The position numbers and the translations under genes were made by a program. The notes beneath the pieces are model-generated. The model had not been told where the DNA came from. It searched no databases and saw nothing but the letters and a program-made list of their open reading frames with translations. From assembly GCA_965649765.1 (NCBI GenBank), contig OZ287756.1, positions 44,330,001-44,394,000 of the forward strand: a stretch of 64,000 bases of DNA. Reading direction: 5' to 3'. This document shows positions 8,637-49,206 of this stretch, in pieces. This DNA comes from Bispira polyomma. Its lineage: Eukaryota. Every line of letters begins with the position of its first letter. The stretch's first letter is position 1.

Positions 8637-11600
8637 CATGTATTGAATCCATTCCTTGAGTTTCCTCTTCTACGAAATCTTCCGAGTGTTTGTCTTCATC
8701 TTCCGAATCATCAGCCGGTGAGTCACCATCCAGTATTAGTGTTTCATCATCAACACATGTACCAACTGGGACAGGCGCTTCATCCTCCTTAGAATCTTCA
8801 GTCAGGTCATCTTCATGTGGGGCTTCATCTGGTTCTGACGATTCAACATCTTCCAATTTATTTTCATCCCTTGGAAGATTATCTGTGTCTTTGCTTTCTT
8901 CAGCCATAGTTTCTGTAGGTTCAGTAATTTCCTCTTCTGGTTCTTTGTCATTCTCTTCATCCACACAAGTACCATCTGGAACAGGAACACCAGTGTCATC
9001 TTCTTGTATTCTGTCCCCTTCTAGATCCTTTTCAGACTGTGGTGTAACAGTTTCTCTTGGAGTGCCACCTTCTTCGACATCTTCAGTGTGTTTGTTTTCA
9101 TCTTCTGCTGCATCAGTATGTGAGTCGCCATCCAGTATTGGTGTTTCATCATCAACACATGTACCAACTAGGACAGGCGCTTCTTCCTCCTTAGAATCTT
9201 CAGTCAGGTCATCTTCATGTGGTGCTTCATCTGGTTTGGATGATTCAACATCTTCCAATTCACTTTCATCCATTGGAAGATTATCTGTGTCTTTGCTTTC
9301 TTCATCTATAGTTTCTGTAGGTTCAGTAATTTCCTCTTCTGGTTCTTTGTCATTCTCTTCATCCACACAAGTACCGTCTGGAACAGGAACACCAGTGTCA
9401 TCTTCTTGTATTCTGTCCTCTTCTCGATCCTTTTCAGACTGTGGTGTAACAGTTTCTCTTGGAGTGTCACCTTCTTCGACATCTTCAGTGTGTTTGTGTT
9501 CATCTTCTGCATCATCAGTAGGTGCGTCACCATCCAGTATTGGTGTTTCATCATCAACACATGTACCAACTGGGACAGGCGCTTCTTCCTCCTTAGAATC
9601 TTCGACATCTTCAGTGTGTTTGTGTTCATCTTCTGAATCATCAGCCGGTGAGTCACCATCCAGTATTAGTGTTTCATCATCAACACATGTACCAACTGGG
9701 ACAGGCGCTTCATCCTCCTTAGAATCTTCAGTCAGGTCATCTTCATGTGGGGCTTCATCTGGTTCTGACGATTCAACATCTTCCAATTTATTTTCATCCC
9801 TTGGAAGATTATCTGTGTCTTTGCTTTCTTCAGCCATAGTTTCTGTAGGTTCAGTAATTTCCTCTTCTGGTTCTTTGTCATTCTCTTCATCCACACAAGT
9901 ACCGTCTGGAACAGGAACACCAGTGTCATCTTCTTGTATTCTGTCCCCTTCTAGATCCTTTTCAGACTGTGGTGTAACAGTTTCTCTTGGAGTGCCACCT
10001 TCTTCGACATCTTCAGTGTGTTTGTTTTCATCTTCTGCTGCATCAGTATGTGAGTCGCCATCCAGTATTGGTGTTTCATCATCAACACATGTACCAACTA
10101 GGACAGGCGCTTCTTCCTCCTTAGAATCTTCAGTCAGGTCATCTTCATGTGGTGCTTCATCTGGTTTGGATGATTCAACATCTTCCAATTCACTTTCATC
10201 CATTGGAAGATTATCTGTGTCTTTGCTTTCTTCATCTATAGTTTCTGTAGGTTCAGTAATTTCCTCTTCTGGTTCTTTGTCATTCTCTTCATCCACACAA
10301 GTACCGTCTGGAACAGGAACACCAGTGTCATCTTCTTGTATTCTGTCCTCTTCTCGATCCTTTTCAGACTGTGGTGTAACAGTTTCTCTTGGAGTGTCAC
10401 CTTCTTCGACATCTTCAGTGTGTTTGTGTTCATCTTCTGCATCATCAGTAGGTGCGTCACCATCCAGTATTGGTGTTTCATCATTGACACATGTACCAAC
10501 TGGGACAGGCGCTTCTTCCTCCTTAGAATCTTCGACATCTTCAGTGTGTTTGTGTTCATCTTCTGAATCATCAGCCGGTGAGTCACCATCCAGTATTAGT
10601 GTTTCATCATCAACACATGTACCAACTGGGACAGGCGCTTCATCCTCCTTAGAATCTTCAGTCAGGTCATCTTCATGTGGGACTTCATCTGGTTTGGATG
10701 ATTCAACATCTTCCAATTCACATTCATTCCTTGGAAGATTATCTGTGTCTTTGGTTTCTTCGTCCAGCGTTTCTGTAGGTTCAGTAATTTCCTCTTCTGG
10801 TTCTTTGTCATTCTCTTCATCCACACAAATACCATCTGGAACAGGAACACAAGTGTCATCTTCTTGTATTCTGTCCTCTTCTAGATCCTTTTCAGACTGT
10901 GGTGTAACAGTTTCTCTTGGAGTGTCACCTTCTTCGACATCTTCAGTGTGTTTGTGTTCATCTTCTGCAGCATCAGTAGGTGAGTCGCCATCCAGTATTG
11001 GTGTTTCATCATCAACACATGTACCAACTGGGACAGGTGCTTCATCCTCCTTAGAAACTTCTGTCAGGTCTTCTTCATGTGGTGCTTCATCTGGTTTGGA
11101 TGATTCAACATCTTCCAATTCACTTTCATCCATTGGAAGATTATCTGTGTCTTTGCTTTCTTCATCGATAGTTTCTGTAGGTTCAGTAATTTTCTCTTCT
11201 GGTTCTTTGTCATTCTCTTCATCCACACAAGTACTGTCTGGAACAGGAACACCAGTGTCATCTTCTTGTATTCTGTCCTCTTCTCGATCCTTTTCAGACT
11301 GTGGTGTAACAGTTTCTCTTGGAGTGTCACCTTCTTTGACATCTTCAGTGTGTTTGTGTTCATCTTCTGCATCATCAGTAGGTGCGTCACCATCCAGTAT
11401 TGGTGTTTCATCATCAACACATGTACCAACTGGGACAGGCGCTTCTTCCTCCTTAGAATCTTCAGTCAGGTCATCTTCTTGTGTGGCTTCATCTGGTTTG
11501 GATGATTCAGCATCCTCCAATTCACTTTCATCCATTGGAAGATTATCTGTGTCTTTGCTTTCTTCATCCATAGTTTCTGTAGGTTCAGTAATTTTCTCTT

Positions 11601-14600
11601 CTGGTTCTTTGTCATTCTCTTCATCCACACAAGTACCGTCTGGAACAGGAACTCCAGTGTCATCTTCTTGTATTCTGTCCTCTTGTAGATCCTTTTCAGA
11701 CTGTGGTGTAACAGTTTCTCTTGGAGTGTCACCTTCGTTGACATCTTCAGTGTGTTTGTTTTCATCTTCTGCAGCATCAGTAGGTGAGTCGCCATCCAGT
11801 ATTGGTGTTTCATCATCAACACATGTACCAACTGGGACAGGCGCTTCATCCTCCTTAGAATCTTCAGTCAGGTCATCTCCATGTGGGGCTTCATTTGGTT
11901 TGGATGATTCAACATCTTCCAATTCACTTTCATCCATTGGAAGATTATCTGTGTCTTTGCTTTCTTCATCCATAGTTTCTGTAGGTTCAGTAATTTCCTC
12001 TTCTGGTTCTTTGTCATTCTCTTCATCCACACAAGTACCATCTGGAACAGGAACACCAGTGTCATCTTCTTGTATTCTGTCCTCTTCTAGATCCTTTTCA
12101 GACTGTGGTGTAACAGTTTCTCTTGGAGTGTCACCTTCTTCGACATCTTCAGTGTGTTTGTGTTCATCTTCTGCAGCATCAGTAGGTGAGTCGCCATCCA
12201 GTATTGGTGTTTCATCATCAACACATGTACCAACTGGGACAGGTGCTTCATCCTCCTTAGAAACTTCTGTCAGGTCTTCTTCATGTGGTGCTTCATCTGG
12301 TTTGGATGATTCAACATCTTCCAATTCACTTTCATCCATTGGAAGATTATCTGTGTCTTTGCTTTCTTCATCGATAGTTTCTGTAGGTTCAGTAATTTTC
12401 TCTTCTGGTTCTTTGTCATTCTCTTCATCCACACAAGTACTGTCTGGAACAGGAACACCAGTGTCATCTTCTTGTATTCTGTCCTCTTCTCGATCCTTTT
12501 CAGACTGTGGTGTAACAGTTTCTCTTGGAGTGTCACCTTCTTTGACATCTTCAGTGTGTTTGTGTTCATCTTCTGCATCATCAGTAGGTGCGTCACCATC
12601 CAGTATTGGTATTTCATCATCAACACATGTACCAACTGGGACAGGCGCTTCTTCCTCCTTAGAATCTTCAGTCAGGTCATCTTCTTGTGTGGCTTCATCT
12701 GGTTTGGATGATTCAGCATCCTCCAATTCACTTTCATCCATTGGAAGATTATCTGTGTCTTTGCTTTCTTCATCCATAGTTTCTGTAGGTTCAGTAATTT
12801 TCTCTTCTGGTTCTTTGTCATTCTCTTCATCCACACAAGTACCGTCTGGAACAGGAACTCCAGTGTCATCTTCTTGTATTCTGTCCTCTTGTAGATCCTT
12901 TTCAGACTGTGGTGTAACAGTTTCTCTTGGAGTGTCACCTTCTTCGACATCTTCAGTGTGTTTGTTTTCATCTTCTGCAGCATCAGTAGGTGAGTCGCCA
13001 TCCAGTATTGGTGTTTCATCATCAACACATGTACCAACTGGGACAGGTGCTTCATCCTCCTTAGAAACTTCTGTCAGGTCTTCTTCATGTGGTGCTTCAT
13101 CTGGTTTGGATGATTCAACATCTTCCAATTCACTTTCATCCATTGGAAGATTATCTGTGTCTTTGCTTTCTTCATCTATAGTTTCTGTAGGTTCAGTAAT
13201 TTCCTCTTCTGGTTCTTTGTCATTCTCTTCATCCACACAAGTACCGTCTGGAACAGGAACACCAGTGTCATCTTCTTGTATTCTGTCCTCTTCTCGATCC
13301 TTTTCAGACTGTGGTGTAACAGTTTCTCTTGGAGTGTCACCTTCTTCGACATCTTCAGTGTGTTTGTGTTCATCTTCTGCATCATCAGTAGGTGCGTCAC
13401 CATCCAGTATTGGTGTTTCATCATCAACACATGTACCAACTGGGACAGGCGCTTCTTCCTCCTTAGAATCTTCGACATCTTCAGTGTGTTTGTGTTCATC
13501 TTCTGAATCATCAGCCGGTGAGTCACCATCCAGTATTAGTGTTTCATCATCAACACATGTACCAACTGGGACAGGCGCTTCATCCTCCTTAGAATCTTCA
13601 GTCAGGTCATCTTCATGTGGGGCTTCATCTGGTTTGGATGATTCAACATCTTCCAATTCACATTCATTCCTTGGAAGATTATCTGTGTCTTTGGTTTCTT
13701 CGTCCAGCGTTTCTGTAGGTTCAGTAATTTCCTCTTCTGGTTCTTTGTCATTCTCTTCATCCACACAAATACCGTCTGGAACAGGAACACCAGTGTCATC
13801 TTCTTGTATTCTGTCCTCTTCTAGATCCTTTTCAGACTGTGGTGTAACAGTTTCTCTTGGAGTGCCACCTTCTTCGACATCTTCAGTGTGTTTGTTTTCA
13901 TCTTCTACAGCATCAGTATGTGAGTTGCCATCCAGTATTGGTGTTTCATTATCAACACATGTACCAACTGGGACAGGCGCTTCTTCCTCCTTAGAATCTT
14001 CAGTCAGGTCATCTTCTTGTGTGGCTTCATCTGGTTTGGATGATTCAGCATCCTCCAATTCACTTTCATCCATTGGAAGATTATCTGTGTCTCTGCTTTC
14101 TTCATCCATAGTTTCTGTAGGTTCAGTAATTTCCTCTTCTGGTTCTTTGTCATTCTCTTCATCCACACAAGTACCGTCTGGAACAGGAACACCAGTGTCA
14201 TCTTCTTGTATTCTGTCCCCTTCTAGATCCTTTTCAGACTGTGGTGTAACAGTTTCTCTTGTAGTGTCACCTTCTTCGACATCTTCAGTGTGTTTATGTT
14301 CATCTTCTGCATCATCAGTAGGTGCGTTACCATCCAGTATTGGTGTTTCATCATCAACACATGTACCAACTGGGACAGGCGCTTCTTCCTCCTTAGAATC
14401 TTCAGTCAGGTCATCTTCTTGTGTGGCTTCATCTGGTTTGGCTGATTCAGCATCCTCCAATTCACTTCCATCCATTGGAAGATTATCTGTGTCTCTGCTT
14501 TCTTCATCCATAGTTTCTGTAGGTTCAGTAATTTCCTCTTCTGGTTCTTTGTCATTCTCTTCATCCACACAAGTACCGTCTGGAACAGGAACACCAGTGT

Positions 14601-17600
14601 CATCTTCTTGTATTCTGTCCGCTTCTAGATCCTTTTCAGACTGTGGTGTAACAGTTTCTCTTGTAGTGTCACCTTCTTCGACATCTTCAGTGTGTTTGTT
14701 TTCATCTTCTGCAGCATCAGTAGGTGCGTCGCCATCCAGTATTGGTGTTTCATCATCAACACATGTACCAACTAGGACAGGCGCTTCTTCCTCCTTAGAA
14801 TCTTCTGTCAGGTCATCTTCATGTGGTGCTTCATCTGGTTTGGATGATTCAACATCTTCCAATTCACTTTCATCCATTGGAACATTATCTGTGTCTTTGC
14901 TTTCTTCATCCATAGTTTCTGTAGGTTCAGTAATTTTCTCTTCTGGTTCTTTGTCATTCTCTTCATCCACACAAGTACCGTCTGGAACAGGAACACCAGT
15001 GTCATCTTCTTGTATTCTGTCCCCTTCTAGATCCTTTTCAGACTGTGGTGTAACAGTTTCTCTTGGAGTGTCACCTTCTTCGACATCTTCAGTGTGTTTG
15101 TTTTCATCTTCTGCAGCATCAGTAGGTGCGTCGCCATCCAGTATTGGTGTTTCATCATCAACACATGTACCAACTGGGACAGGTGCTTCATCCTCCTTAG
15201 AATCTTCTGTCAGGTCATCTTCTTGTGGTGCTTCATCTGGTTTGGATGATTCAACATCTTCCAATTCACTTTCATCCATTGGAAGATTATCTGTGTCTTT
15301 GCTTTCTTCATCCATAGTTTCTGTAGGTTCAGTAATTTTCTCTTCTGGTTCTTTGTCATTCTCTTCATCCACACAAGTACCGTCTGGAACAGGAACACCC
15401 GTGTCATCTTCTTGTATTCTGTCCTCTTCTCGATCCTTTTCAGACTGTGGTGTAACAGTTTCTCTTGGAGTGTCACCTTCTTCGACATCTTCAGTGTGTT
15501 TATGTTCATCTTCTGCAGCATCAGTAGGTGCGTCACCATCCAGTATTGGTGTTTCATCATCAACACATGTACCAACTGGGAAAGGCACTTCTTCCTCCTT
15601 AGAATCTTCAGTCAGGTCATCTCTATGTGGGGCTTTATTTGGTTTGGATGATTCAACATCTTCCAATTCACTTTCATCCATTGGAAGATTATCTGTGTCT
15701 TTGCTTTCTTCATCCATAGTTTCTGTAGGTTCAGTAATTTTCTCTTCTGGTTCTTTGTCATTCTCTTCATCCACACAAGTACCATCTGGAACAGGAACAC
15801 CAGTGTCATCTTCTTGTATTCTGTCCTCTTCTAGATCCTTTTCAGACTGTGGTGTAACAGTTTCTGTTGGAGTGTCACCTTCTTTGACATCTTCAGTGTG
15901 TTTGTTTTCATCTTCTGCAGCATCAGTAGGTGCGTCGCCATCCAGTATTGGTGTTTCATCATCAACACATGTACCAACTGGGACAGGTGCTTCATCCTCC
16001 TTAGAATCTTCTGTCAGGTCATCTTCTTGTGGTGCTTCATCTGGTTTGGATGATTCAACATCTTCCAATTCACTTTCATCCATTGGAAGATTATCTGTGT
16101 CTTTGCTTTCTTCATCCATAGTTTCTGTAGGTTCAGTAATTTTCTCTTCTGGTTCTTTGTCATTCTCTTCATCCACACAAGTACCGTCTGGAACAGGAAC
16201 ACCAGTGTCATCTTCTTGTATTCTGTCCCCTTCTAGATCCTTTTCAGACTGTGGTGTAACAGTTTCTCTTGTAGTGTCACCTTCTTCGACATCTTCAGTG
16301 TGTTTGTTTTCATCTTCTGCAGCATCAGTAGGTGCGTCGCCATCCAGTATTGGTGTTTCATCATCAACACATGTACCAACTGGGACAGGTGCTTCATCCT
16401 CCTTAGAATCTTCTGTCAGGTCTTCTTCATGTGGTGCTTCATCTGGTTTGGATGATTCAACATCTTCCAATTCACTTTCATCCATTGGAAGATTATCTGT
16501 GTCTTTGCTTTCTTCATCCATAGTTTCTGTAGGTTCAGTAATTTTCTCTTCTGGTTCTTTGTCATTCTCTTCATCCACACAAGTACCGTCTGGAACAGGA
16601 ACACCAGTGTCATCTTCTTGTATTCTGTCCTCTTCTCGATCCTTTTCAGACTGTGGTGTAACAGTTTCTCTTGGAGTGTCACCTTCTTCGACATCTTCAG
16701 TGTGTTTATGTTCATCTTCTGCATCATCAGTAGGTGCGTCACCATCCAGTATTGGTGTTTCATCATCAACACATGTACCAACTGGGACAGGCGCTTCTTC
16801 CTCCTTAGAATCTTCAGTCAGGTCATCTTCTTGTGTGGCTTCATCTGGTTTGGATGATTCAGCATCCTCCAATTCACTTTCATCCATTGGAAGATTATCT
16901 GTGTCTCTGCTTTCTTCATCCATAGTTTCTGTAGGTTCAGTAATTTCCTCTTCTGGTTCTTTGTCATTCTCTTCATCCACACAAGTACCGTCTGGAACAG
17001 GAACACCAGTGTCATCTTCTTGTATTCTGTCCCCTTCTAGATCCTTTTCAGACTGTGGTGTAACAGTTTCTCTTGTAGTGTCACCTTCTTCGACATCTTC
17101 AGTGTGTTTGTTTTCATCTTCTGCAGCATCAGTAGGTGCGTCGCCATCCAGTATTGGTGTTTCATCATCAACACATGTACCAACTGGGACAGGTGCTTCA
17201 TCCTCCTTAGAATCTTCTGTCAGGTCTTCTTCATGTGGTGCTTCATCTGGTTTGGATGATTCAACATCTTCCAATTCACTTTCATCCATTGGAAGATTAT
17301 CTGTGTCTTTGCTTTCTTCATCCATAGTTTCTGTAGGTTCAGTAATTTTCTCTTCTGGTTCTTTGTCATTCTCTTCATCCACACAAGTACCGTCTGGAAC
17401 AGGAACACCAGTGTCATCTTCTTGTATTCTGTCCTCTTCTCGATCCTTTTCAGACTGTGGTGTAACAGTTTCTCTTGGAGTGTCACCTTCTTCGACATCT
17501 TCAGTGTGTTTATGTTCATCTTCTGCATCATCAGTAGGTGCGTCACCATCCAGTATTGGTGTTTCATCATCAACACATGTACCAACTGGGACAGGCGCTT

Positions 17601-20600
17601 CTTCCTCCTTAGAATCTTCAGTCAGGTCATCTTCTTGTGTGGCTTCATCTGGTTTGGATGATTCAGCATCCTCCAATTCACTTCCATCCATTGGAAGATT
17701 ATCTGTGTCTCTGCTTTCTTCATCCATAGTTTCTGTAGGTTCAGTAATTTCCTCTTCTGGTTCTTTGTCATTCTCTTCATCCACACAAGTACCGTCTGGA
17801 ACAGGAACACCAGTGTCATCTTCTTGTATTCTGTCCCCTTCTAGATCCTTTTCAGACTGTGGTGTAACAGTTTCTCTTGTAGTGTCACCTTCTTCGACAT
17901 CTTCAGTGTGTTTGTTTTCATCTTCTGCAGCATCAGTAGGTGCGTCGCCATCCAGTATTGGTGTTTCATCATCAACACATGTACCAACTAGGACAGGCGC
18001 TTCTTCCTCCTTAGAATCTTCTGTCAGGTCATCTTCATGTGGTGCTTCATCTGGTTTGGATGATTCAACATCTTCCAATTCACTTTCATCCATTGGAACA
18101 TTATCTGTGTCTTTGCTTTCTTCATCCATAGTTTCTGTAGGTTCAGTAATTTTCTCTTCTGGTTCTTTGTCATTCTCTTCATCCACACAAGTACCGTCTG
18201 GAACAGGAACACCAGTGTCATCTTCTTGTATTCTGTCCCCTTCTAGATCCTTTTCAGACTGTGGTGTAACAGTTTCTCTTGGAGCGTCACCTTCTTCGAC
18301 ATCTTCAGTGTGTTTGTTTTCATCTTCTGCAGCACCAGTAGGTGCGTCGCCATCCAGTATTGGTGTTTCATCATCAACACATGTACCAACTAGGACAGGC
18401 GCTTCTTCCTCCTTAGAATCTTCTGTCAGGTCATCTTCATGTGGTGCTTCATCTGGTTTGGATGATTCAACATCTTCCAATTCACTTTCATCCATTGGAA
18501 CATTATCTGTGTCTTTGCTTTCTTCATCCATAGTTTCTGTAGGTTCAGTAATTTTCTCTTCTGGTTCTTTGTCATTCTCTTCATCCACACAAGTACCGTC
18601 TGGAACAGGAACACCAGTGTCATCTTCTTGTATTCTGTCCCCTTCTAGATCCTTTTCAGACTGTGGTGTAACAGTTTCTCTTGGAGCGTCACCTTCTTCG
18701 ACATCTTCAGTGTGTTTGTTTTCATCTTCTGCAGCACCAGTAGGTGCGTCGCCATCCAGTATTGGTGTTTCATCATCAACACATGTACCAACTGGGACAG
18801 GTGCTTCATCCTCCTTAGAATCTTCAGTCAGGTCTTCTTCATGTGGTGCTTCATCTGGTTTGGATGATTCAACATCTTCCAATTCACTTTCATCCATTGG
18901 AAGATTATCTGTGTCTTTGCTTTCTTCATCCATAGTTTCTGTAGGTTCAGTAATTTTCTCTTCTGGTTCTTTGTCATTCTCTTCATCCACACAAGTACCG
19001 TCTGGAACAGGAACACCAGTGTCATCTTCTTGTATTCTGTCCTCTTCTCGATCCTTTTCAGACTGTGGTGTAACAGTTTCTCTTGGAGTGTCACCTTCTT
19101 CGACATCTTCAGTGTGTTTATGTTCATCTTCTGCATCATCAGTAGGTGCGTCACCATCCAGTATTGGTGTTTCATCATCAACACATGTACCAACTGGGAC
19201 AGGCGCTTCTTCCTCCTTAGAATCTTCAGTCAGGTCATCTTCTTGTGTGGCTTCATCTGGTTTGGATGATTCAGCATCCTCCAATTCACTTTCATCCATT
19301 GGAAGATTATCTGTGTCTCTGCTTTCTTCATCCATAGTTTCTGTAGGTTCAGTAATTTCCTCTTCTGGTTCTTTGTCATTCTCTTCATCCACACAAGTAC
19401 CGTCTGGAACAGGAACACCAGTGTCATCTTCTTGTATTCTGTCCCCTTCTAGATCCTTTTCAGACTGTGGTGTAACAGTTTCTCTTGTAGTGTCACCTTC
19501 TTCGACATCTTCAGTGTGTTTGTTTTCATCTTCTGCAGCATCAGTAGGTGCGTCGCCATCCAGTATTGGTGTTTCATCATCAACACATGTACCAACTGGG
19601 ACAGGTGCTTCATCCTCCTTAGAATCTTCTGTCAGGTCTTCTTCATGTGGTGCTTCATCTGGTTTGGATGATTCAACATCTTCCAATTCACTTTCATCCA
19701 TTGGAAGATTATCTGTGTCTTTGCTTTCTTCATCCATAGTTTCTGTAGGTTCAGTAATTTTCTCTTCTGGTTCTTTGTCATTCTCTTCATCCACACAAGT
19801 ACCGTCTGGAACAGGAACACCAGTGTCATCTTCTTGTATTCTGTCCTCTTCTCGATCCTTTTCAGACTGTGGTGTAACAGTTTCTCTTGGAGTGTCACCT
19901 TCTTCGACATCTTCAGTGTGTTTATGTTCATCTTCTGCATCATCAGTAGGTGCGTCACCATCCAGTATTGGTGTTTCATCATCAACACATGTACCAACTG
20001 GGACAGGCGCTTCATCCTCCTTAGAATCTTCAGTCAGGTCATCTTCTTGTGTGGCTTCATCTGGTTTGGATGATTCAGCATCCTCCAATTCACTTCCATC
20101 CATTGGAAGATTATCTGTGTCTCTGCTTTCTTCATCCATAGTTTCTGTAGGTTCAGTAATTTCCTCTTCTGGTTCTTTGTCATTCTCTTCATCCACACAA
20201 GTACCGTCTGGAACAGGAACACCAGTGTCATCTTCTTGTATTCTGTCCCCTTCTAGATCCTTTTCAGACTGTGGTGTAACAGTTTCTCTTGTAGTGTCAC
20301 CTTCTTCGACATCTTCAGTGTGTTTGTTTTCATCTTCTGCAGCATCAGTAGGTGCGTCGCCATCCAGTATTGGTGTTTCATCATCAACACATGTACCAAC
20401 TGGGACAGGTGCTTCATCCTCCTTAGAATCTTCTGTCAGGTCTTCTTCATGTGGTGCTTCATCTGGTTTGGATGATTCAACATCTTCCAATTCACTTTCA
20501 TCCATTGGAAGATTATCTGTGTCTTTGCTTTCTTCATCCATAGTTTCTGTAGGTTCAGTAATTTTCTCTTCTGGTTCTTTGTCATTCTCTTCATCCACAC

Positions 20601-32600: not shown

Positions 32601-35600
32601 TAGTTTCTGTAGGTTCAGTAATTTCCTTTTCTGGTTCTTTGTCATTCTCTTCATCCACACAAGTACCGTCTGGAACAGGAACACCAGCGTCATCTTCTTG
32701 TATTCTGTCCCCTTCTAGATCCTTTTCAGACTGTGGTGTAACAGTTTCTGTTGGAGTGTCACCTTCTTTGACATCTTCAGTGTGTTTGTTTTCATCTTCT
32801 GCAGCATCAGTAGGTGCGTCGCCATCCAGTATTGGTGTTTCATCATCAACACATGTACCAACTGGGACAGGTGCTTCATCCTCCTTAGAATCTTCTGTCA
32901 GGTCATCTTCTTGTGGTGCTTCATCTGGTTTGGATGATTCAACATCTTCCAATTCACTTTCATCCATTGGAAGATTATCTGTGTCTTTGCTTTCTTCATC
33001 CATAGTTTCTGTAGGTTCAGTAATTTTCTCTTCTGGTTCTTTGTCATTCTCTTCATCCACACAAGTACCGTCTGGAACAGGAACACCAGTGTCATCTTCT
33101 TGTATTCTGTCCTCTTCTAGATCCTTTTCAGACTGTGGTGTAACAGTTTCTCTTGGAGTGTCACCTTCTTTGACATCTTCAGTGTGTTTGTGTTCATCTT
33201 CTGCAGCATCAGTAGGTGAGTCGCCATCCAGTATTGGTGTTTCATCATCAACACATGTACCAACTGGGACAGGTGCTTCTTCCTCCTTAGAATCTTCAGT
33301 CAGGTCATCTTCTTGTGTGACTTCATCTGGTTTGGATGATTCAGCATCCTCCAATTCACTTTCATCCATTGAAAGATTATCTGTGTCTCTGCTTTCTTCA
33401 TCCATAGTTTCTGTAGGTTCAGTAATTTCCTTTTCTGGTTCTTTGTCATTCTCTTCATCCACACAAGTACCGTCTGGAACAGGAACACCAGCGTCATCTT
33501 CTTGTATTCTGTCCCCTTCTAGATCCTTTTCAGACTGTGGTGTAACAGTTTCTCTTGGAGTGTCACCTTCTTCGACATCTTCAGTGTGTTTGTTTTCATC
33601 TTCTGCAGCATCAGTAGGTGCGTCGCCATCCAGTATTGGTGTTTCATCATCAACACATGTACCAACTGGGACAGGTGCTTCATCCTCCTTAGAATCTTCT
33701 GTCAGGTCATCTTCTTGTGGTGCTTCATCTGGTTTGGATGATTCAACATCTTCCAATTCACTTTCATCCATTGGAAGATTATCTGTGTCTTTGCTTTCTT
33801 CATCCATAGTTTCTGTAGGTTCAGTAATTTTCTCTTCTGGTTCTTTGTCATTCTCTTCATCCACACAAGTACCGTCTGGAACAGGAACACCCGTGTCATC
33901 TTCTTGTATTCTGTCCTCTTCTAGATCCTTTTCAGACTGTGGTGTAACAGTTTCTCTTGGAGTGTCACCTTCTTCGACATCTTCAGTGTGTTTATGTTCA
34001 TCTTCTGCAGCATCAGTAGGTGCGTCACCATCCAGTATTGGTGTTTCATCATCAACACATGTACCAACTGGGAAAGGCACTTCTTCCTCCTTAGAATCTT
34101 CAGTCAGGTCATCTCTATGTGGGGCTTCATTTGGTTTGGATGATTCAACATCTTCCAATTCACTTTTATCCATTGGAAGATTATCTGTGTCTTTGCTTTC
34201 TTCATCCATAGTTTCTGTAGGTTCAGTAATTTCCTCTTCTGGTTCTTTGTCATTCTCTTCATCCACACAAGTACCATCTGGAACAGGAACACCAGTGTCA
34301 TCTTCTTGTATTCTGTCCTCTTCTAGATCCTTTTCAGACTGTGGTGTAACAGTTTCTCTTGGAGTGTCACCTTCTTTGACATCTTCAGTGTGTTTGTGTT
34401 CATCTTCTGCAGCATCAGTAGGTGAGTTGCCATCCAGTATTGGTGTTTCATCATCAACACATGTACCAACTGGGACAGGTGCTTCTTCCTCCTTAGAATC
34501 TTCAGTCAGGTCATCTTCTTGTGTGACTTCATCTGGTTTGGATGATTCAGCATCCTCCAATTCACTTTCATCCATTGAAAGAATATCTGTGTCTCTGCTT
34601 TGTTCATCCATAGTTTCTGTAGGTTCAGTAATTTCCTTTTCTGGTTCTTTGTCATTCTCTTCATCCACACAAGTACCGTCTGGAACAGGAACACCAGCGT
34701 CATCTTCTTGTATTCTGTCCCCTTCTAGATCCTTTTCAGACTGTGGTGTAACAGTTTCTGTTGGAGTGTCACCTTCTTTGACATCTTCAGTGTGTTTGTT
34801 TTCATCTTCTGCAGCATCAGTAGGTGCGTCGCCATCCAGTATTGGTGTTTCATCATCAACACATGTACCAACTGGGACAGGTGCTTCATCCTCCTTAGAA
34901 TCTTCTGTCAGGTCATCTTCTTGTGGTGCTTCATCTGGTTTGGATGATTCAACATCTTCCAATTCACTTTCATCCATTGGAAGATTATCTGTGTCTTTGC
35001 TTTCTTCATCCATAGTTTCTGTAGGTTCAGTAATTTTCTCTTCTGGTTCTTTGTCATTCTCTTCATCCACACAAGTACCGTCTGGAACAGGAACACCAGT
35101 GTCATCTTCTTGTATTCTGTCCTCTTCTAGATCCTTTTCAGACTGTGGTGTAACAGTTTCTCTTGTAGTGTCACCTTCTTTGACATCTTCAGTGTGTTTG
35201 TGTTCATCTTCTGCAGCATCAGTAGGTGAGTCGCCATCCAGTATTGGTGTTTCATCATCAACACATGTACCAACTGGGACAGGTGCTTCTTCCTCCTTAG
35301 AATCTTCAGTCAGGTCATCTTCTTGTGTGACTTCATCTGGTTTGGATGATTCAGCATCCTCCAATTCACTTTCATCCATTGAAAGATTATCTGTGTCTCT
35401 GCTTTCTTCATCCATAGTTTCTGTAGGTTCAGTAATTTCCTTTTCTGGTTCTTTGTCATTCTCTTCATCCACACAAGTACTGTCTGGAACAGGAACACCA
35501 GCGTCATCTTCTTGTATTCTGTCCCCTTCTAGATCCTTTTCAGACTGTGGTGTAACAGTTTCTCTTGGAGTGTCACCTTCTTCGACATCTTCAGTGTGTT

Positions 35601-38600
35601 TGTTTTCATCTTCTGCAGCATCAGTAGGTGCGTCGCCATCCAGTATTGGTGTTTCATCATCAACACATGTACCAACTGGGACAGGTGCTTCATCCTCCTT
35701 AGAATCTTCTGTCAGGTCATCTTCTTGTGGTGCTTCATCTGGTTTGGATGATTCAACATCTTCCAATTCACTTTCATCCATTGGAAGATTATCTGTGTCT
35801 TTGCTTTCTTCATCCATAGTTTCTGTAGGTTCAGTAATTTTCTCTTCTGGTTCTTTGTCATTCTCTTCATCCACACAAGTACCGTCTGGAACAGGAACAC
35901 CAGTGTCATCTTCTTGTATTCTGTCCTCTTCTAGATCCTTTTCAGACTGTGGTGTAACAGTTTCTCTTGTAGTGTCACCTTCTTTGACATCTTCAGTGTG
36001 TTTGTGTTCATCTTCTGCAGCATCAGTAGGTGAGTCGCCATCCAGTATTGGTGTTTCATCATCAACACATGTACCAACTGGGACAGGTGCTTCTTCCTCC
36101 TTAGAATCTTCAGTCAGGTCATCTTCTTGTGTGACTTCATCTGGTTTGGATGATTCAGCATCCTCCAATTCACTTTCATCCATTGAAAGATTATCTGTGT
36201 CTCTGCTTTCTTCATCCATAGTTTCTGTAGGTTCAGTAATTTCCTTTTCTGGTTCTTTGTCATTCTCTTCATCCACACAAGTACTGTCTGGAACAGGAAC
36301 ACCAGCGTCATCTTCTTGTATTCTGTCCCCTTCTAGATCCTTTTCAGACTGTGGTGTAACAGTTTCTCTTGGAGTGTCACCTTCTTCGACATCTTCAGTG
36401 TGTTTGTTTTCATCTTCTGCAGCATCAGTAGGTGCGTCGCCATCCAGTATTGGTGTTTCATCATCAACACATGTACCAACTGGGACAGGTGCTTCATCCT
36501 CCTTAGAATCTTCTGTCAGGTCATCTTCTTGTGGTGCTTCATCTGGTTTGGATGATTCAACATCTTCCAATTCACTTTCATCCATTGGAAGATTATCTGT
36601 GTCTTTGCTTTCTTCATCCATAGTTTCTGTAGGTTCAGTAATTTTCTCTTCTGGTTCTTTGTCATTCTCTTCATCCACACAAGTACCGTCTGGAACAGGA
36701 ACACCCGTGTCATCTTCTTGTATTCTGTCCTCTTCTCGATCCTTTTCAGACTGTGGTGTAACAGTTTCTCTTGGAGTGTCACCTTCTTCGACATCTTCAG
36801 TGTGTTTATGTTCATCTTCTGCAGCATCAGTAGGTGCGTCACCATCCAGTATTGGTGTTTCATCATCAACACATGTACCAACTGGGAAAGGCACTTCTTC
36901 CTCCTTAGAATCTTCAGTCAGGTCATCTCTATGTGGGGCTTCATTTGGTTTGGATGATTCAACATCTTCCAATTCACTTTCATCCATTGGAAGATTATCT
37001 GTGTCTTTGCTTTCTTCATCCATAGTTTCTGTAGGTTCAGTAATTTCCTCTTCTGGTTCTTTGTCATTCTCTTCATCCACACAAGTACCATCTGGAACAG
37101 GAACACCAGTGTCATCTTCTTGTATTCTGTCCTCTTCTAGATCCTTTTCAGACTGTGGTGTAACAGTTTCTCTTGGAGTGTCACCTTCTTTGACATCTTC
37201 AGTGTGTTTGTGTTCATCTTCTGCAGCATCAGTAGGTGAGTCGCCATCCAGTATTGGTGTTTCATCATCAACACATGTACCAACTGGGACAGGTGCTTCT
37301 TCCTCCTTAGAATCTTCAGTCAGGTCATCTTCTTGTGTGACTTCATCTGGTTTGGATGATTCAGCATCCTCCAATTCACTTTCATCCATTGAAAGATTAT
37401 CTGTGTCTCTGCTTTCTTCATCCATAGTTTCTGTAGGTTCAGTAATTTCCTTTTCTGGTTCTTTGTCATTCTCTTCATCCACACAAGTACCGTCTGGAAC
37501 AGGAACACCCGCGTCATCTTCTTGTATTCTGTCCCCTTCTAGATCCTTTTCAGACTGTGGTGTAACAGTTTCTCTTGGAGTGTCACCTTCTTTGACATCT
37601 TCAGTGTGTTTGTTTTCATCTTCTGCAGCATCAGTAGGTGCGTCGCCATCCAGTATTGGTGTTTCATTATCAACACATGTACCAACTGGGACAGGTGCTT
37701 CATCCTCCTTAGAATCTTCTGTCAGGTCTTCTTCATGTGGTGCTTCATCTGGTTTGGATGATTCAACATCTTCCAATTCACTTTCATCCATTGGAAGATT
37801 ATCTGTGTCTTTGCTTTCTTCATCCATAGTTTCTGTAGGTTCAGTAATTTTCTCTTCTGGTTCTTTGTCATTCTCTTCATCCACACAAGTACCGTCTGGA
37901 ACAGGAACACCAGTGTCATCTTCTTGTATTCTGTCCTCTTCTAGATCCTTTTCAGACTGTGGTGTAACAGTTTCTCTTGGAGTGTCACCTTCTTTGACAT
38001 CTTCAGTGTGTTTGTGTTCATCTTCTGCAGCATCAGTAGGTGAGTCGCCATCCAGTATTGGTGTTTCATCATCAACACATGTACCAACTGGGACAGGTGC
38101 TTCTTCCTCCTTAGAATCTTCAGTCAGGTCATCTTCTTGTGTGACTTCATCTGGTTTGGATGATTCAGCATCCTCCAATTCACTTTCATCCATTGAAAGA
38201 ATATCTGTGTCTCTGCTTTCTTCATCCATAGTTTCTGTAGGTTCAGTAATTTCCTTTTCTGGTTCTTTGTCATTCTCTTCATCCACACAAGTACCGTCTG
38301 GAACAGGAACACCAGCGTCATCTTCTTGTATTCTGTCCCCTTCTAGATCCTTTTCAGACTGTGGTGTAACAGTTTCTCTTGGAGTGTCACCTTCTTTGAC
38401 ATCTTCAGTGTGTTTGTTTTCATCTTCTGCAGCATCAGTAGGTGCGTCGCCATCCAGTATTGGTGTTTCATCATCAACACATGTACCAACTGGGACAGGT
38501 GCTTCATCCTCCTTAGAATCTTCTGTCAGGTCATCTTCTTGTGGTGCTTCATCTGGTTTGGATGATTCAACATCTTCCAATTCACTTTCATCCATTGGAA

Positions 38601-41600
38601 GATTATCTGTGTCTTTGCTTTCTTCATCCATAGTTTCTGTAGGTTCAGTAATTTTCTCTTCTGGTTCTTTGTCATTCTCTTCATCCACACAAGTACCGTC
38701 TGGAACAGGAACACCCGTGTCATCTTCTTGTATTCTGTCCTCTTCTCGATCCTTTTCAGACTGTGGTGTAACAGTTTCTCTTGGAGTGTCACCTTCTTCG
38801 ACATCTTCAGTGTGTTTATGTTCATCTTCTGCAGCATCAGTAGGTACGTCACCATCCAGTATTGGTGTTTCATCATCAACACATGTACCAACTGGGAAAG
38901 GCGCTTCTTCCTCCTTAGAATCTTCAGTCAGGTCATCTCCATGTGGGGCTTCATTTGGTTTGGATGATTCAACATCTTCCAATTCACTTTCATCCATTGA
39001 AAGATTATCTGTGTCTTTGCTTTCTTCATCCATAGTTTCTGTAGGTTCAGTAATTTCCTCTTCTGGTTCTTTGTCATTCTCTTCATCCACACAAGTACCA
39101 TCTGGAACAGGAACACCAGTGTCATCTTCTTGTATTCTGTCCTCTTCTAGATCCTTTTCAGACTGTGGTGTAACAGTTTCTCTTGGAGTGTCACCTTCTT
39201 TGACATCTTCAGTGTGTTTGTGTTCATCTTCTGCAGCATCAGTAGGTGAGTCGCCATCCAGTATTGGTGTTTCATCATCAACACATGTACCAACTGGGAC
39301 AGGTGCTTCTTCCTCCTTAGAATCTTCAGTCAGGTCATCTTCTTGTGTGACTTCATCTGGTTTGGATGATTCAGCATCCTCCAATTCACTTTCATCCATT
39401 GAAAGAATATCTGTGTCTCTGCTTTGTTCATCCATAGTTTCTGTAGGTTCAGTAATTTCCTTTTCTGGTTCTTTGTCATTCTCTTCATCCACACAAGTAC
39501 CGTCTGGAACAGGAACACCCGCGTCATCTTCTTGTATTCTGTCCCCTTCTAGATCCTTTTCAGACTGTGGTGTAACAGTTTCTGTTGGAGTGTCACCTTC
39601 TTTGACATCTTCAGTGTGTTTGTTTTCATCTTCTGCAGCATCAGTAGGTGCGTCGCCATCCAGTATTGGTGTTTCATTATCAACACATGTACCAACTGGG
39701 ACAGATGCTTCATCCTCCTTAGAATCTTCTGTCAGGTCTTCTTCATGTGGTGCTTCATCTGGTTTGGATGATTCAACATCTTCCAATTCACTTTCATCCA
39801 TTGGAAGATTATCTGTGTCTTTGCTTTCTTCATCCATAGTTTCTGTAGGTTCAGTAATTTTCTCTTCTGGTTCTTTGTCATTCTCTTCATCCACACAAGT
39901 ACCGTCTGGAACAGGAACACCAGTGTCATCTTCTTGTATTCTGTCCTCTTCTAGATCCTTTTCAGACTGTGGTGTAACAGTTTCTCTTGGAGTGTCACCT
40001 TCTTTGACATCTTCAGTGTGTTTGTGTTCATCTTCTGCAGCATCAGTAGGTGAGTCGCCATCCAGTATTGGTGTTTCATCATCAACACATGTACCAACTG
40101 GGACAGGCGCTTCTTCCTCCTTAGAATCTTCAGTCAGGTCATCTTCTTGTGTGACTTCATCTGGTTTGGATGATTCAGCATCCTCCAATTCACTTTCATC
40201 CATTGAAAGATTATCTGTGTCTCTGCTTTCTTCATCCATAGTTTCTGTAGGTTCAGTAATTTCCTTTTCTGGTTCTTTGTCATTCTCTTCATCCACACAA
40301 GTACCGTCTGGAACAGGAACACCAGTGTCATCTTCTTGTATTCTGTCCCCTTCTAGATCCTTTTCAGACTGTGGTGTAACAGTTTCTCTTGTAGTGTCAC
40401 CTTCTTCGACATCTTCAGTGTGTTTGTTTTCATCTTCTGCAGCATCAGTAGGTGCGTCGCCATCCAGTATTGGTGTTTCATCATCAACACATGTACCAAC
40501 TAGGACAGGCGCTTCTTCCTCCTTAGAATCTTCAGTCAGGTCATCTCCATGTGGGGCTTCATTTGGTTTGGATGATTCAACATCTTCCAATTCACTTTCA
40601 TCCATTGAAAGATTATCTGTGTCTTTGCTTTCTTCATCCATAGTTTCTGTAGGTTCAGTAATTTCCTCTTCTGGTTCTTTGTCATTCTCTTCATCCACAC
40701 AAGTACCATCTGGAACAGGAACACCAGTGTCATCTTCTTGTATTCTGTCCTCTTCTAGATCCTTTTCAGACTGTGGTGTAACAGTTTCTCTTGGAGTGTC
40801 ACCTTCTTTGACATCTTCAGTGTGTTTGTGTTCATCTTCTGCAGCATCAGTAGGTGAGTCGCCATCCAGTATTGGTGTTTCATCATCAACACATGTACCA
40901 ACTGGGACAGGTGCTTCTTCCTCCTTAGAATCTTCAGTCAGGTCATCTTCTTGTGTGACTTCATCTGGTTTGGATGATTCAGCATCCTCCAATTCACTTT
41001 CATCCATTGAAAGATTATCTGTGTCTCTGCTTTCTTCATCCATAGTTTCTGTAGGTTCAGTAATTTCCTTTTCTGGTTCTTTGTCATTCTCTTCATCCAC
41101 ACAAGTACCGTCTGGAACAGGAACACCCGCGTCATCTTCTTGTATTCTGTCCCCTTCTAGATCCTTTTCAGACTGTGGTGTAACAGTTTCTGTTGGAGTG
41201 TCACCTTCTTTGACATCTTCAGTGTGTTTGTTTTCATCTTCTGCAGCATCAGTAGGTGCGTCGCCATCCAGTATTGGTGTTTCATTATCAACACATGTAC
41301 CAACTGGGACAGGTGCTTCATCCTCCTTAGAATCTTCTGTCAGGTCTTCTTCATGTGGTGCTTCATCTGGTTTGGATGATTCAACATCTTCCAATTCACT
41401 TTCATCCATTGGAAGATTATCTGTGTCTTTGCTTTCTTCATCCATAGTTTCTGTAGGTTCAGTAATTTTCTCTTCTGGTTCTTTGTCATTCTCTTCATCC
41501 ACACAAGTACCGTCTGGAACAGGAACACCAGTGTCATCTTCTTGTATTCTGTCCTCTTCTAGATCCTTTTCAGACTGTGGTGTAACAGTTTCTCTTGGAG

Positions 41601-44600
41601 TGTCACCTTCTTTGACATCTTCAGTGTGTTTGTGTTCATCTTCTGCAGCATCAGTAGGTGAGTCGCCATCCAGTATTGGTGTTTCATCATCAACACATGT
41701 ACCAACTGGGACAGGCGCTTCTTCCTCCTTAGAATCTTCAGTCAGGTCATCTTCTTGTGTGACTTCATCTGGTTTGGATGATTCAGCATCCTCCAATTCA
41801 CTTTCATCCATTGAAAGATTATCTGTGTCTCTGCTTTCTTCATCCATAGTTTCTGTAGGTTCAGTAATTTCCTTTTCTGGTTCTTTGTCATTCTCTTCAT
41901 CCACACAAGTACCGTCTGGAACAGGAACACCAGTGTCATCTTCTTGTATTCTGTCCCCTTCTAGATCCTTTTCAGACTGTGGTGTAACAGTTTCTCTTGG
42001 AGTGTCACCTTCTTCGACATCTTCAGTGTGTTTATGTTCATCTTCTGCAGCATCAGTAGGTGCGTCACCATCCAGTATTGGTGTTTCATCATCAACACAT
42101 GTACCAACTGGGAAAGGCGCTTCTTCCTCCTTAGAATCTTCAGTCAGGTCATCTCCATGTGGGGCTTCATTTGGTTTGGATGGTTCAACATCTTCCAATT
42201 CACTTTCATCCATTGAAAGATTATCTGTGTCTTTGCTTTCTTCATCCATAGTTTCTGTAGGTTCAGTAATTTCCTCTTCTGGTTCTTTGTCATTCTCTTC
42301 ATCCACACAAGTACCATCTGGAACAGGAACACCAGTGTCATCTTCTTGTATTCTGTCCTCTTCTAGATCCTTTTCAGACTGTGGTGTAACAGTTTCTCTT
42401 GGAGTGTCACCTTCTTTGACATCTTCAGTGTGTTTGTGTTCATCTTCTGCAGCATCAGTAGGTGAGTCGCCATCCAGTATTGGTGTTTCATCATCAACAC
42501 ATGTACCAACTGGGACAGGTGCTTCATCCTCCTTAGAATCTTCTGTCAGGTCATCTTCTTGTGTGACTTCATCTGGTTTGGATGATTCAGCATCCTCCAA
42601 TTCACTTTCATCCATTGAAAGATTATCTGTGTCTCTGCTTTCTTCATCCATAGTTTCTGTAGGTTCAGTAATTTCCTTTTCTGGTTCTTTGTCATTCTCT
42701 TCATCCACACAAGTACCGTCTGGAACAGGAACACCAGCGTCATCTTCTTGTATTCTGTCCCCTTCTAGATCCTTTTCAGACTGTGGTGTAACAGTTTCTG
42801 TTGGAGTGTCACCTTCTTTGACATCTTCAGTGTGTTTGTTTTCATCTTCTGCAGCATCAGTAGGTGCGTCGCCATCCAGTATTGGTGTTTCATTATCAAC
42901 ACATGTACCAACTGGGACAGGTGCTTCATCCTCCTTAGAATCTTCTGTCAGGTCTTCTTCATGTGGTGCTTCATCTGGTTTGGATGATTCAACATCTTCC
43001 AATTCACTTTCATCCATTGGAAGATTATCTGTGTCTTTGCTTTCTTCATCCATAGTTTCTGTAGGTTCAGTAATTTTCTCTTCTGGTTCTTTGTCATTCT
43101 CTTCATCCACACAAGTACCGTCTGGAACAGGAACACCAGTGTCATCTTCTTGTATTCTGTCCTCTTCTCGATCCTTTTCAGACTGTGGTGTAACAGTTTC
43201 TCTTGGAGTGTCACCTTCTTCGACATCTTCAGTGTGTTTGTGTTCATCTTCTGCAGCATCAGTAGGTGAGTCGCCATCCAGTATTGGTGTTTCATCATCA
43301 ACACATGTACCAACTGGGACAGGTGCTTCATCCTCCTTAGAATCTTCTGTCAGGTCATCTTCTTGTGTGACTTCATCTGGTTTGGATGATTCAGCATCCT
43401 CCAATTCACTTTCATCCATTGAAAGATTATCTGTGTCTCTGCTTTCTTCATCCATAGTTTCTGTAGGTTCAGTAATTTCCTTTTCTGGTTCTTTGTCATT
43501 CTCTTCATCCACACAAGTACCGTCTGGAACAGGAACACCAGCGTCATCTTCTTGTATTCTGTCCCCTTCTAGATCCTTTTCAGACTGTGGTGTAACAGTT
43601 TCTGTTGGAGTGTCACCTTCTTTGACATCTTCAGTGTGTTTGTTTTCATCTTCTGCAGCATCAGTAGGTGCGTCGCCATCCAGTATTGGTGTTTCATTAT
43701 CAACACATGTACCAACTGGGACAGGTGCTTCATCCTCCTTAGAATCTTCTGTCAGGTCTTCTTCATGTGGTGCTTCATCTGGTTTGGATGATTCAACATC
43801 TTCCAATTCACTTTCATCCATTGGAAGATTATCTGTGTCTTTGCTTTCTTCATCCATAGTTTCTGTAGGTTCAGTAATTTTCTCTTCTGGTTCTTTGTCA
43901 TTCTCTTCATCCACACAAGTACCGTCTGGAACAGGAACACCAGTGTCATCTTCTTGTATTCTGTCCTCTTCTCGATCCTTTTCAGACTGTGGTGTAACAG
44001 TTTCTCTTGGAGTGTCACCTTCTTCGACATCTTCAGTGTGTTTGTGTTCATCTTCTGCATCATCAGTAGGTGTGTCACCATCCAGTATTGGTGTTTCATC
44101 ATCAACACATGTACCAACTGGGACAGGCGCTTCTTCCTCCTTAGAATCTTCAGTCAGGTCATCTTCTTGTGTGGCTTCATCTGGTTTGGATGATTCAGCA
44201 TCCTCCAATTCACTTTCATCCATTGGAAGATTATCTGTGTCTTTGCATTCTTCATCCATAGTTTCTGTAGTTTCAGTAATTTCCTCTTCTGGTTCTTTGT
44301 CATTCTCTTCATCCACACAAGTACCGTCTGGAACAGGAACACCAGTGTCATCTTGTATTCTGTCCCCTTCTAGATCCTTTTCAGACTGTGGTGTAACAGT
44401 TTCTCTTGGAGTGTCACCTTCTTCGACATCTTCAGTGTGTTTGTTTTCATCTTCTGCAGAATCAGCAGGTGAGTCACCATCCAGTATTGGTGTTTCATCA
44501 TCATCACATGTACCAACTGGGACAGGCGCTTCTTCCTCCTTAGAATCTTCAGTCAGGTCATCTTCATGTGGTGCTTCATTCTGTTTGGATGATTCAACAT

Positions 44601-45092
44601 ATTCCAATTCACTTTCATCCCTTGAAAGATTATCTGTGTCTTTGCTTTCTTTATCCATAGTTTCTGTAAGTTCAGTAATTTCCTCTTCTGGTTCTTTGTC
44701 ATTCTCTTCATCCACACAAGTACCGTCTGCAACAGGAACACCAGTGTCATCTTGTATTCTGTCCCCTTCTAGATCCTTTTCAGACTGTGGTGTAACAATT
44801 TCTCTTGTAGTGTCATCTTCTTCAACATCTTCAGTGTGTTTGTCGTCATCTTCTGCAGCATCAGCAGATGAGTAGCCATCCAGTATTGGTGTTTCATCAT
44901 CAACACATGTACCAACCAAGACAGGTGCTTCGTCCTCTTCAGAATATTTACTCTGGTCATTTTCATGTGAGGCTTCCTCTGGTTTGGATAACTCAACATC
45001 TTCGAACATTTCGTGAATACTATTATCATCACTTATATTTTGAACCGGCGATGAGTAACCTGAACTTGATGAATTTTTTCTTGAATAGGCAT
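8637..45092 (-). CDS. Giant 36,456-nt coding exon (12,152 codons) encoding a D/E-rich, probably disordered repeat region
   Basis: Lies within the 12,209-aa ORF 8482..45111. Acceptor ttttaattacAG|ATGCC (AG at 45094-45093) and donor CATG|GTCAGT (GT at 8636-8635). Both ends are phase 1 and the length is divisible by 3. The ORF sequence outside these sites is AT-rich and intron-like. Confidence 0.88.
8670..45010 (-). repeat. Coding tandem array, 402-bp (134-aa) unit, about 90 copies, with higher-order structure
   Basis: Shadow ORFs recur every 402 bp from 13602 to 44154. There are three 126-bp internal duplications (9601-9726, 10531-10656, 13471-13596) and 399-bp units at the 5' end. Representative unit: EDDTGVPVPDGTCVDEENDKEPEEEITEPTETMDEESKDTDNLPMDESELEDVESSKPDEAPHEDDLTEDSKEEEAPVPVGTCVDDETPILDGDAPTDAAEDENKHTEDVEEGDTPRETVTPQSEKDLEGDRIQ. 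Confidence 0.98.
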
Positions 45093-45960: not shown

Positions 45961-46080
45961 CTTTAGATACTGAAGGAGTTCTAGGGCTTCCTGTTTGTCC
46001 AATATACGGTAGAAATGGTGTTCCAGGGTTGCTGTAGCAATCTCCTTCACCTCTATTACTGCCTGATCGTGGTCTTTGAT
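45961..46080 (-). CDS. Internal 120-nt exon of the giant gene: (D)QRPRSGSNRGEGDCYSNPGTPFLPYIGQTGSPRTPSVSK
   Basis: Acceptor ttcctgtAG| and donor AAAG|GTATTG, phase 1-1, open, and in frame with both neighbours. GC-richer than its flanks. Confidence 0.85.
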
Positions 46081-49092: not shown

Positions 49093-49206
49093 CTGTAGTT
49101 AGTGGCGAGGATGTCCTGGGACTGTATGAGCTCTCTATGTGGGGTAGTGTAGGAGTGCATGATCTGGTTCTTGGGCTGGTTTCGTCTGAATACCTCGGAC
49201 TGGAAC
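49093..49206 (-). CDS. Internal 114-nt exon of the giant gene: (C)SSPRYSDETSPRTRSCTPTLPHIESSYSPRTSSPLTT
   Basis: Acceptor ttctgttacAG|GT and donor ACAG|GTACTA, phase 1-1, open. S/P/R-rich like the adjacent exons. Confidence 0.85.

Follow-up and report, generated by a model that had tools for sequence, protein, structure and literature searches.

A predicted giant gene of Bispira polyomma with a 36-kb acidic repeat array as its likely fourth exon

We analysed a 64,000-nucleotide (nt) stretch of the Bispira polyomma genome (contig OZ287756.1, positions 44,330,001 to 44,394,000, that is, C9:44330001-44394000 of the 1.04-Gb genome; hereafter, the window), in which an earlier note, made from the window alone, had described a giant coding exon on the minus strand (exon A). 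On balance, and with only modest confidence, we favor the reading that exon A is a young acidic array, probably the fourth exon in the gene for a predicted protein of 16,163 residues, and that in this protein it would form a spacer preceding 15 putative docking helices for protein kinase A (PKA) and a probably dead domain of a lyase type that depends on pyridoxal 5'-phosphate (PLP). The gene model was built with 100 kb of flanking sequence on each side. In it, 12 exons bordered by AG and GT give 16,163 codons closed by a single stop, for a predicted mass of ~1.79 MDa: a head of 199 residues in three exons, rich in Ser, Arg and Pro, then exon A, exon B, and, beyond the window, seven small exons. 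The features are as follows, in window coordinates unless C9 is given.

52659..53022, minus strand: exon 1, the predicted first coding exon (open reading frame 53040-52624); 121 codons, basic, rich in Ser, Arg and Pro
49093..49206, minus strand: exon 2 (predicted); 114 nt, phase 1-1, rich in Ser, Pro, Thr and Arg, with AG/GT borders, in frame
45961..46080, minus strand: exon 3 (predicted); 120 nt, phase 1-1, ending in ...PSVSK, with the donor that a skip of exon A would use
8637..45092, minus strand: exon A; 36,456 nt, 12,151 codons, phase 1-1, AG/GT borders
8667..45003, minus strand: tandem array of 402-nt (134-residue) units, from repeat analysis
8660-44872, plus strand: antisense open frame, Ser-rich, 12,071 codons; a likely by-product of the sense codons
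1..8089 and on to C9:44327760, minus strand: exon B; 10,330 nt, phase 1-2
7164..7454, minus strand: diverged partial copy of the exon A unit inside exon B, in the same frame (91% and 82% DNA identity; protein alignment)
Beyond the window as far as the stop codon (C9:44316509), minus strand: last seven exons, encoding the rest of the PLP-fold domain in an in-frame model

The frame of exon A described in the earlier note is confirmed: the length is a multiple of 3, the 12,151 full codons include no stop, the sequence ...TTACAG precedes and GTCAGT follows, and the phase is 1-1. The enclosing stop-to-stop frame (45114-8485, minus strand; 12,210 codons) starts 7 codons ahead of the acceptor, and the acidic composition stops at the donor. 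The flanking introns are indeed short (868 and 547 nt) and both in phase 1; leaving out exon A yields the in-frame junction that had been described, ...PSVSK-A-FCGERK..., within an open product of 4,012 amino acids (aa) free of stops. What the sequence provides is the frame and the splice-site dinucleotides; that exon A is spliced as one exon is a prediction.

The composition of exon A is strongly skewed (Glu 21.7%, Asp 18.0%, Thr 10.7%, Pro 8.9%), with Asp and Glu together amounting to 40% and Glu, Asp, Thr, Pro, Ser and Lys to 69% of the residues. There are 4,818 acidic residues, 186 cysteines and 14 aromatic residues, and the net charge per residue is -0.33. Most of the exon is occupied by ~90 copies of a 134-residue acidic unit, each with two Val/Pro-Gly-Thr-Cys-Val-Asp motifs. 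The Gly-Thr-Cys-Val-Asp part may be reminiscent of dynein light-chain LC8 sites but does not contain the anchor Gln. Unique in-frame sequence is found at the ends, ~28 Ser-rich codons at the 5' end and ~10 codons at the 3' end. Cutting at motif anchors gives 93 segments (87 of 402 nt, 2 of 399 nt and 4 of 126 nt), at least 92.5% alike. Adjacent units are 95.6% alike and next-but-one units 97.6%, which indicates a two-unit higher-order period; invariant 31-mers of the unit have an assembly multiplicity of up to 89. The genome search, which skips very common words, identified a single diverged copy of the unit elsewhere, the one in exon B.

Exon B consists of ~14 repeats of ~190 aa and includes 15 helices of the form A-K-E-L-V-D-x-A-I-x-x-A-L. 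In the helix of A-kinase anchoring proteins (AKAPs), hydrophobic residues occupy positions 2, 5, 6, 9, 10, 13, 14 and 17 (PMC12083921). All eight positions are filled in 12 of the 15 exon B helices, with an offset match in the last one, compared with 1.4% of shuffled units. Thus, the placement of the giant array between the head and an AKAP-like array, as proposed in the earlier note, holds. Two sequences from public assemblies, P0001 and P0002 (97-99% alike at their ends), are the exon B counterpart in a related organism: their frame starts in the same acceptor context and ends with the same donor and intron, and their identity with exon B is 34% at the beginning but 93.5% across the final 46 residues. 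Their repeat unit differs from that of exon B and has 249 aa; what it keeps is the helix (12 and 10 helices in the two versions) and two short motifs; the helix thus was kept while the remainder of the repeat was rebuilt. No copy of the exon A unit is present in P0001 or P0002, and the head and the exon B unit were found at this locus only in the genome search. The matches of exon B to the Pfam families DUF7038, Cas9_C_2, DUF455 and PHAT were rejected because their scores add up across the repeats and no individual stretch passes; for PHAT, one stretch came near the cut-off. The genome encodes potential partners for such helices, with five PF02197 matches to PKA-type dimerization/docking domains. 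The genome also has an intronless 372-codon PKA RII-like frame on C2 (L038:1465-2580), possibly a retrogene, and an RII-like gene on C4 with the docking domain in a short frame.

The last ~45 residues of exon B together with the seven small exons encode a class-V PLP-fold domain of ~410 aa, which lies outside the window and was missed in the earlier note. The domain is recognized by PF00266 (25.2 bits, cut-off 21.5) and by a PDB search (E=2e-7 for one exon), in which the nearest solved relatives include Egt2, and it aligns over its whole length with seven canonical sequences at 25-37% identity. Nine of the 26 positions that are invariant in these seven sequences are changed. On the Egt2 numbering, with residue roles taken from PMC10805701, Asp221 that contacts the pyridine nitrogen is replaced by Asn, the phosphate-binding Thr107 by Ile, the stacking Tyr134 by Met, and the phosphate-binding His246, which precedes the Schiff-base lysine, by Ser; the Gly-Thr-Arg-Asp loop with Thr307, which binds the phosphate from the dimer partner, is deleted. 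The Schiff-base Lys247 and the substrate Arg (by motif, Arg438) are kept. Single canonical sequences vary at the Tyr, His and Thr307 positions, but none varies at all three. Because the pyridine-nitrogen Asp is lost and the D180A mutant of EgtE is inactive (PMC10805701), the C-terminal domain is likely to be a pseudo-enzyme of the Egt2 family.

The last exon is matched at 89% identity over 81 aa in the best of 39 matches (P0003); P0004-P0006, with 46-51% identity to the same exon, suggest an older, separate lineage. Given that a related organism keeps both the helices and the C-terminal domain (89-93% identical), this conservation shows that the gene is real and that selection acts on its 3' end. 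A search with the PLP exon among proteins of 89-2,000 aa gave eight candidates, none of which passed. Another match, P0012, is an 806-aa protein in which one complete Egt2-like domain follows another.

Beyond the window, 51 kb upstream on the same strand (C9:44433598-44444335), lies the gene for an intact PLP-lyase paralogue of 417 aa. It has the same seven intron positions and phases, and its first coding exon matches the end of exon B. A third member of the family, on C4 (57.21-57.22 Mb), is also intact, with its last two exons duplicated. We considered the possibility that the domain of the giant gene is a tandem duplicate of its neighbor; the location and introns fit, but the identity is 31%, no closer than to other members, so this derivation was not retained, and a tree of eight family sequences did not place the domain. 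The two intact lyases of the Egt2/L-cysteine desulfhydrase-like type are candidates for a C-S lyase step in animals, for example, in ovothiol synthesis.

We propose that the array is a long, probably disordered, negatively charged spacer that would lead from the basic head to the helix array and would hold the head away from helix-bound partners. The putative docking helices could collect numerous holoenzymes of PKA, or further proteins that carry an RIIa-type docking domain, and the probably dead enzyme domain may pair chains, dock a partner or bind the active paralogue. Type I PLP folds are dimers. Chain pairing or binding of the active paralogue appears likely, considering that EgtE and Egt2 work as dimers (PMC10805701). 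The protein would be intracellular, because it combines helices and an enzyme-like domain with the lack of any hydrophobic segment: no 19-residue hydropathy window in the model exceeds 1.29, and no signal-like or membrane segment was detected. The array could have grown by unequal crossing-over or slippage inside a pre-existing phase 1-1 exon, where copy-number change in steps of three would be tolerated, and it may matter through its length and charge, not its sequence. The micron scale that the earlier note envisaged for the spacer agrees with the contour length of exon A, 4.6 um. The coil radius is another matter: scaling laws give 34-53 nm for a free coil, more for a strongly charged chain, so that micron spacing would require both ends to be tethered. 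In its most elaborate form, the proposal is a 1.8-MDa scaffold in which the dead PLP domain pairs chains with 15 predicted PKA docks each, while splicing of exon A fixes how far away the head is, both on or off and as a ladder-tuned ruler of up to micron contour length; we regard this full combination as decidedly unlikely.

The weakest parts of the gene model are the start codon and the donor of exon 1, which scores weakly; further 5' exons are possible. Three read sets (two samples, one study) cover the introns evenly and thus behave as DNA. One contig per read set bridges 44960 to 46117-46140 without extra letters, and these reads may derive from the same individual sample as the assembly; the lack of cover at ~52200-53400 may reflect a filter and proves nothing.

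Several results weigh against the reading of exon A as part of a giant protein of this design. Only 80 distinct base variants separate the array segments from their consensus, and the lack of stops among these 80 has a probability of P=0.11 under neutrality. The variants comprise 64 non-synonymous and 16 synonymous changes against 57.9 and 20.0 expected (omega ~1.4), and between the exon A unit and its copy in exon B, dN/dS is 1.7; there is no purifying selection on the array (dN/dS 1.4-1.7). The antisense frame on the plus strand is as open as the sense frame. Among 294 candidate proteins of 4,400-14,000 aa, the range that was searched with the start of exon A plus one unit, no relative of exon A scored. 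The odd-length segments of the array represent few independent events, and the splice-site scores given below were obtained with matrices from 17 modelled, unverified sites. For the helices, Pfam returned no family for either of the two peptides submitted and a PDB profile search with the helix found no AKAP peptide, both with short queries that have little power. Finally, the uncertain N-terminus leaves room for a signal peptide further upstream.

Because the absence of stops is not significant and the antisense frame is open too, the long frame alone is no proof of translation. The uninterrupted exon that the earlier note called exceptional is real as a frame, but its length is less surprising in a series of near-identical repeats. 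An antisense gene was rejected: the antisense frame stays open in 28% of synonymously recoded units, and its own lack of stops among the 80 variants has P=0.057, so this frame appears to be a by-product of the sense codons. On the side of coding, exon A has a strong codon-position bias, and its unit also occurs in frame within exon B. A search of the ESM Atlas gave no usable match for the units of either exon, which counts neither as absence nor as novelty. Taking these results together, we consider it highly probable that exon A is a young, sequence-relaxed expansion inside a real exon, with properties that lie in length and charge.

How exon A is spliced is a separate question. The earlier note held that a symmetric exon is therefore skippable. 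This does not follow here: 6 of the 10 internal exons of the gene are in phase 1-1, three of them core exons of the C-terminal fold, and 7 of the 10 are symmetric, so that symmetry makes skipping possible without predicting it. The phase symmetry of exon A is the default of the gene and no sign of regulation. Exon B is not symmetric, and its skipping, alone or together with exon A, leads to an early stop. In human, about 42-45% of the internal exons over 1 kb are constitutive, exon size is uncorrelated with inclusion, and flanking introns under 1 kb show no enrichment either way (PMC3467050). A skip isoform present at a meaningful level has, in our estimate, slightly less than an even chance. 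The stronger proposal of the earlier note, a regulated binary switch in which one tissue retains exon A and others leave it out, giving scaffolds of 16,163 and 4,012 aa, has a precedent in the giant ankyrins but is set back by the commonness of phase 1-1 in this gene and by the human data on exon size and short introns, and we consider it unlikely.

The window-only view had also missed splice-site look-alikes that keep the frame inside exon A. Nearly every unit contains an acceptor-like site, of which there are 86 exact copies (the first near 44328), together with two donor-like sites, present in 93 and 83 copies; all of these are in phase 1. Among the interior sites that score at least 5, all 109 donors and 268 of 269 acceptors are in phase 1. 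The main internal acceptor scores 9.4 compared with 3.6 for that of exon A itself, which ranks in the lower third among the 18 modelled sites, with the exon A donor near the middle; the donor look-alikes resemble the modelled donors of exons 2, 6 and 10. With internal sites that all keep the frame, the sequence is as compatible with a ladder of lengths as with a binary switch: the use of other 3' or 5' splice sites in frame, or removal of the exitron type, would change the spacer by a whole unit or a fraction of one at a time. The recoding control, however, traces these sites to the Val-Pro-Val-Pro-Asp/Gly-Thr-Cys protein motif. In 2,000 recoded units, the best donor was in phase 1 in 1,994 and the best acceptor in 1,774. 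The strength of the acceptor exceeds all 2,000 recodings with exon B codon use but is reached by 1.2% (matrix score) and 17.7% (pyrimidine count) of within-unit shuffles. The phase of the look-alikes thus follows from the protein motif, and the acceptor strength is at most mildly unusual; moreover, the would-be introns are as coding-like as the remainder of the exon. We consider a splicing ladder improbable.

The features that speak against coding could also be accounted for by an intronic satellite. Under this scenario, a coding piece was duplicated and amplified within the intron between exon 3 and exon B, its frame was inherited and kept by homogenization, exon A is rarely or never translated, and the 4,012-aa form is the real protein. 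An omega at or above 1, the non-significant lack of stops, the counterpart of the unit in exon B and the failure to find a giant relative of exon A would all be expected. Such a satellite, however, would not readily explain why the unique ends of exon A are in frame, why the phase of its acceptor and donor suits both neighbors, why every length variant is a multiple of 3 (all six odd-length segments differ by such multiples), or why GTAAG, GTGAG and T5 runs are absent throughout 36 kb. We give this scenario a low probability and retain the interpretation of exon A as an expansion inside a real exon.

The length of the array could be inflated by the assembly, the real array being much shorter. 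The units are 95-98% alike on average and some are identical, and blocks of exact copies extend up to 3.3 kb (the longest exact internal repeat is 3,279 nt). Against this stand the absence of N letters in the window, the 68-Mb contig, and the diversity of the units: 54 of the 87 full-length units are distinct, and these 54 types form a position-dependent mosaic with regional sub-families. The exact repeats are also far below long-read length, taken as a general figure. The mosaic and the 3,279-nt longest exact repeat are more in keeping with a real array than with the copying of a block, and inflation appears highly improbable. The least probable alternative is an acidic matrix protein, secreted or on the surface, that serves in biomineral, mucus or ion binding and whose array is a polyanion for calcium. 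It would suit the abundance of acidic residues and the unfixed 5' end of the gene but hardly the lack of a signal-like or membrane segment, the cytosolic-type C-terminal domain and the AKAP-like helices, although intracellular cation binding is possible as a side function.

Among the known systems, the closest are the giant ankyrins. The XL exon of Drosophila Ank2 comprises 27,804 bp with 93 repeats of 76 aa and was proposed to encode a spacer (PMC5135030). The B. polyomma gene shares with the giant ankyrins the very long internal frame, the tandem array of ~90 units, the second long exon that adjoins it, the enrichment in Glu, Asp, Thr, Pro, Ser and Lys, the proposed role of molecular spacer, and repeats that are not conserved beyond close relatives (PMC5135030). 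The ankyrin analogy drawn in the earlier note is therefore apt with respect to exon size and composition, but the gene is not an ankyrin: Pfam scans of the head exons, the unit, exon B and the C-terminal exons detected no ankyrin repeat, ZU5, UPA or death domain, and the 12-exon model has no room for these domains unless they are located far upstream. Exon A is 31% longer than the largest long exon tabulated in PMC5135030 and far more acidic, and giant and short isoforms are known for ankyrins, whereas here they are only predicted from the sequence.

Giant exons of mucins consist of tandem repeats with variable copy number. Giant internal coding exons are also found in MUC16 (exon 3, over 21 kb) and TTN (over 17 kb; PMC3467050); exon A is longer than both, is dominated by Asp and Glu and not by Ser and Thr, and belongs to a model with no signal or membrane segment and no Ig or Fn3 domains. 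Like exon B, AKAP220 and SKIP include amphipathic helices of 14-18 residues within large low-complexity proteins (PMC12083921), but these have few sites compared with the 15 putative tandem helices of exon B, for which no sequence relation to a named AKAP was found. With Egt2, EgtE and the L-cysteine desulfhydrase-like lyases (PDB 5uts, 5v12, 8dl5; PMC10805701), the giant gene shares the whole aligned domain with the Lys and Arg kept, and with the intact neighbor lyase, the intron positions; it differs in the loss of the cofactor residues and in the fusion of the domain behind ~15,750 low-complexity residues.

Giant repeat exons were already known; this size and this domain architecture appear to be new. 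If spliced whole, exon A would exceed in length both the 27.8-kb ankyrin exon and the human record for an internal exon, which stands at over 21 kb, and would be a test case for exon definition by the spliceosome amid hundreds of in-frame decoy sites. Word searches of an open-access library turned up no publication that deals with this gene or describes a longer exon in an animal. The combination of a 12,000-residue polyacid, an AKAP-like helix array and a conserved Egt2-family pseudo-enzyme was not found in the databases searched. The gene, if the model holds, would show that an enzyme duplicate whose first coding exon expands can be recruited as the anchor of a giant scaffold. Exons of great length also occur in the giant polyketide synthase genes of algae, and we claim no record for all eukaryotes.

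Several further features were noticed in the window and in the flanking sequences. A 10-nt tandem repeat of 37 copies lies at window positions 60525-60897. The introns of the PLP-fold domain contain copies of the acceptor together with the first bases of the next exon, as a minisatellite with 4 to 7 pattern matches before exon 8 (L001:5040-5540) and as one copy before exon 10 (L002:8780), and the 5.3-kb intron of this domain harbors a retrotransposon of the long interspersed nuclear element type, with endonuclease and reverse transcriptase frames on the plus strand (L001:1-3480). A near-perfect inverted duplication (C9:44230319-44281385; arms of 21 kb and 4.3 kb, 99.7-99.9% identity), centered near C9:44255870 and extending almost to the border of the sequence analysed, is either a real giant palindrome or a fold-back artefact of the assembly. 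On the other side of the gene, C9:44446500-44475500 contains a cluster of long frames, three to four in number and similar to one another, in which a hydrophobic anchor stands at the N-terminus (524 aa, besides split copies). They may resemble a glycosyltransferase family, and a tyrosine-recombinase retroelement lies between them.

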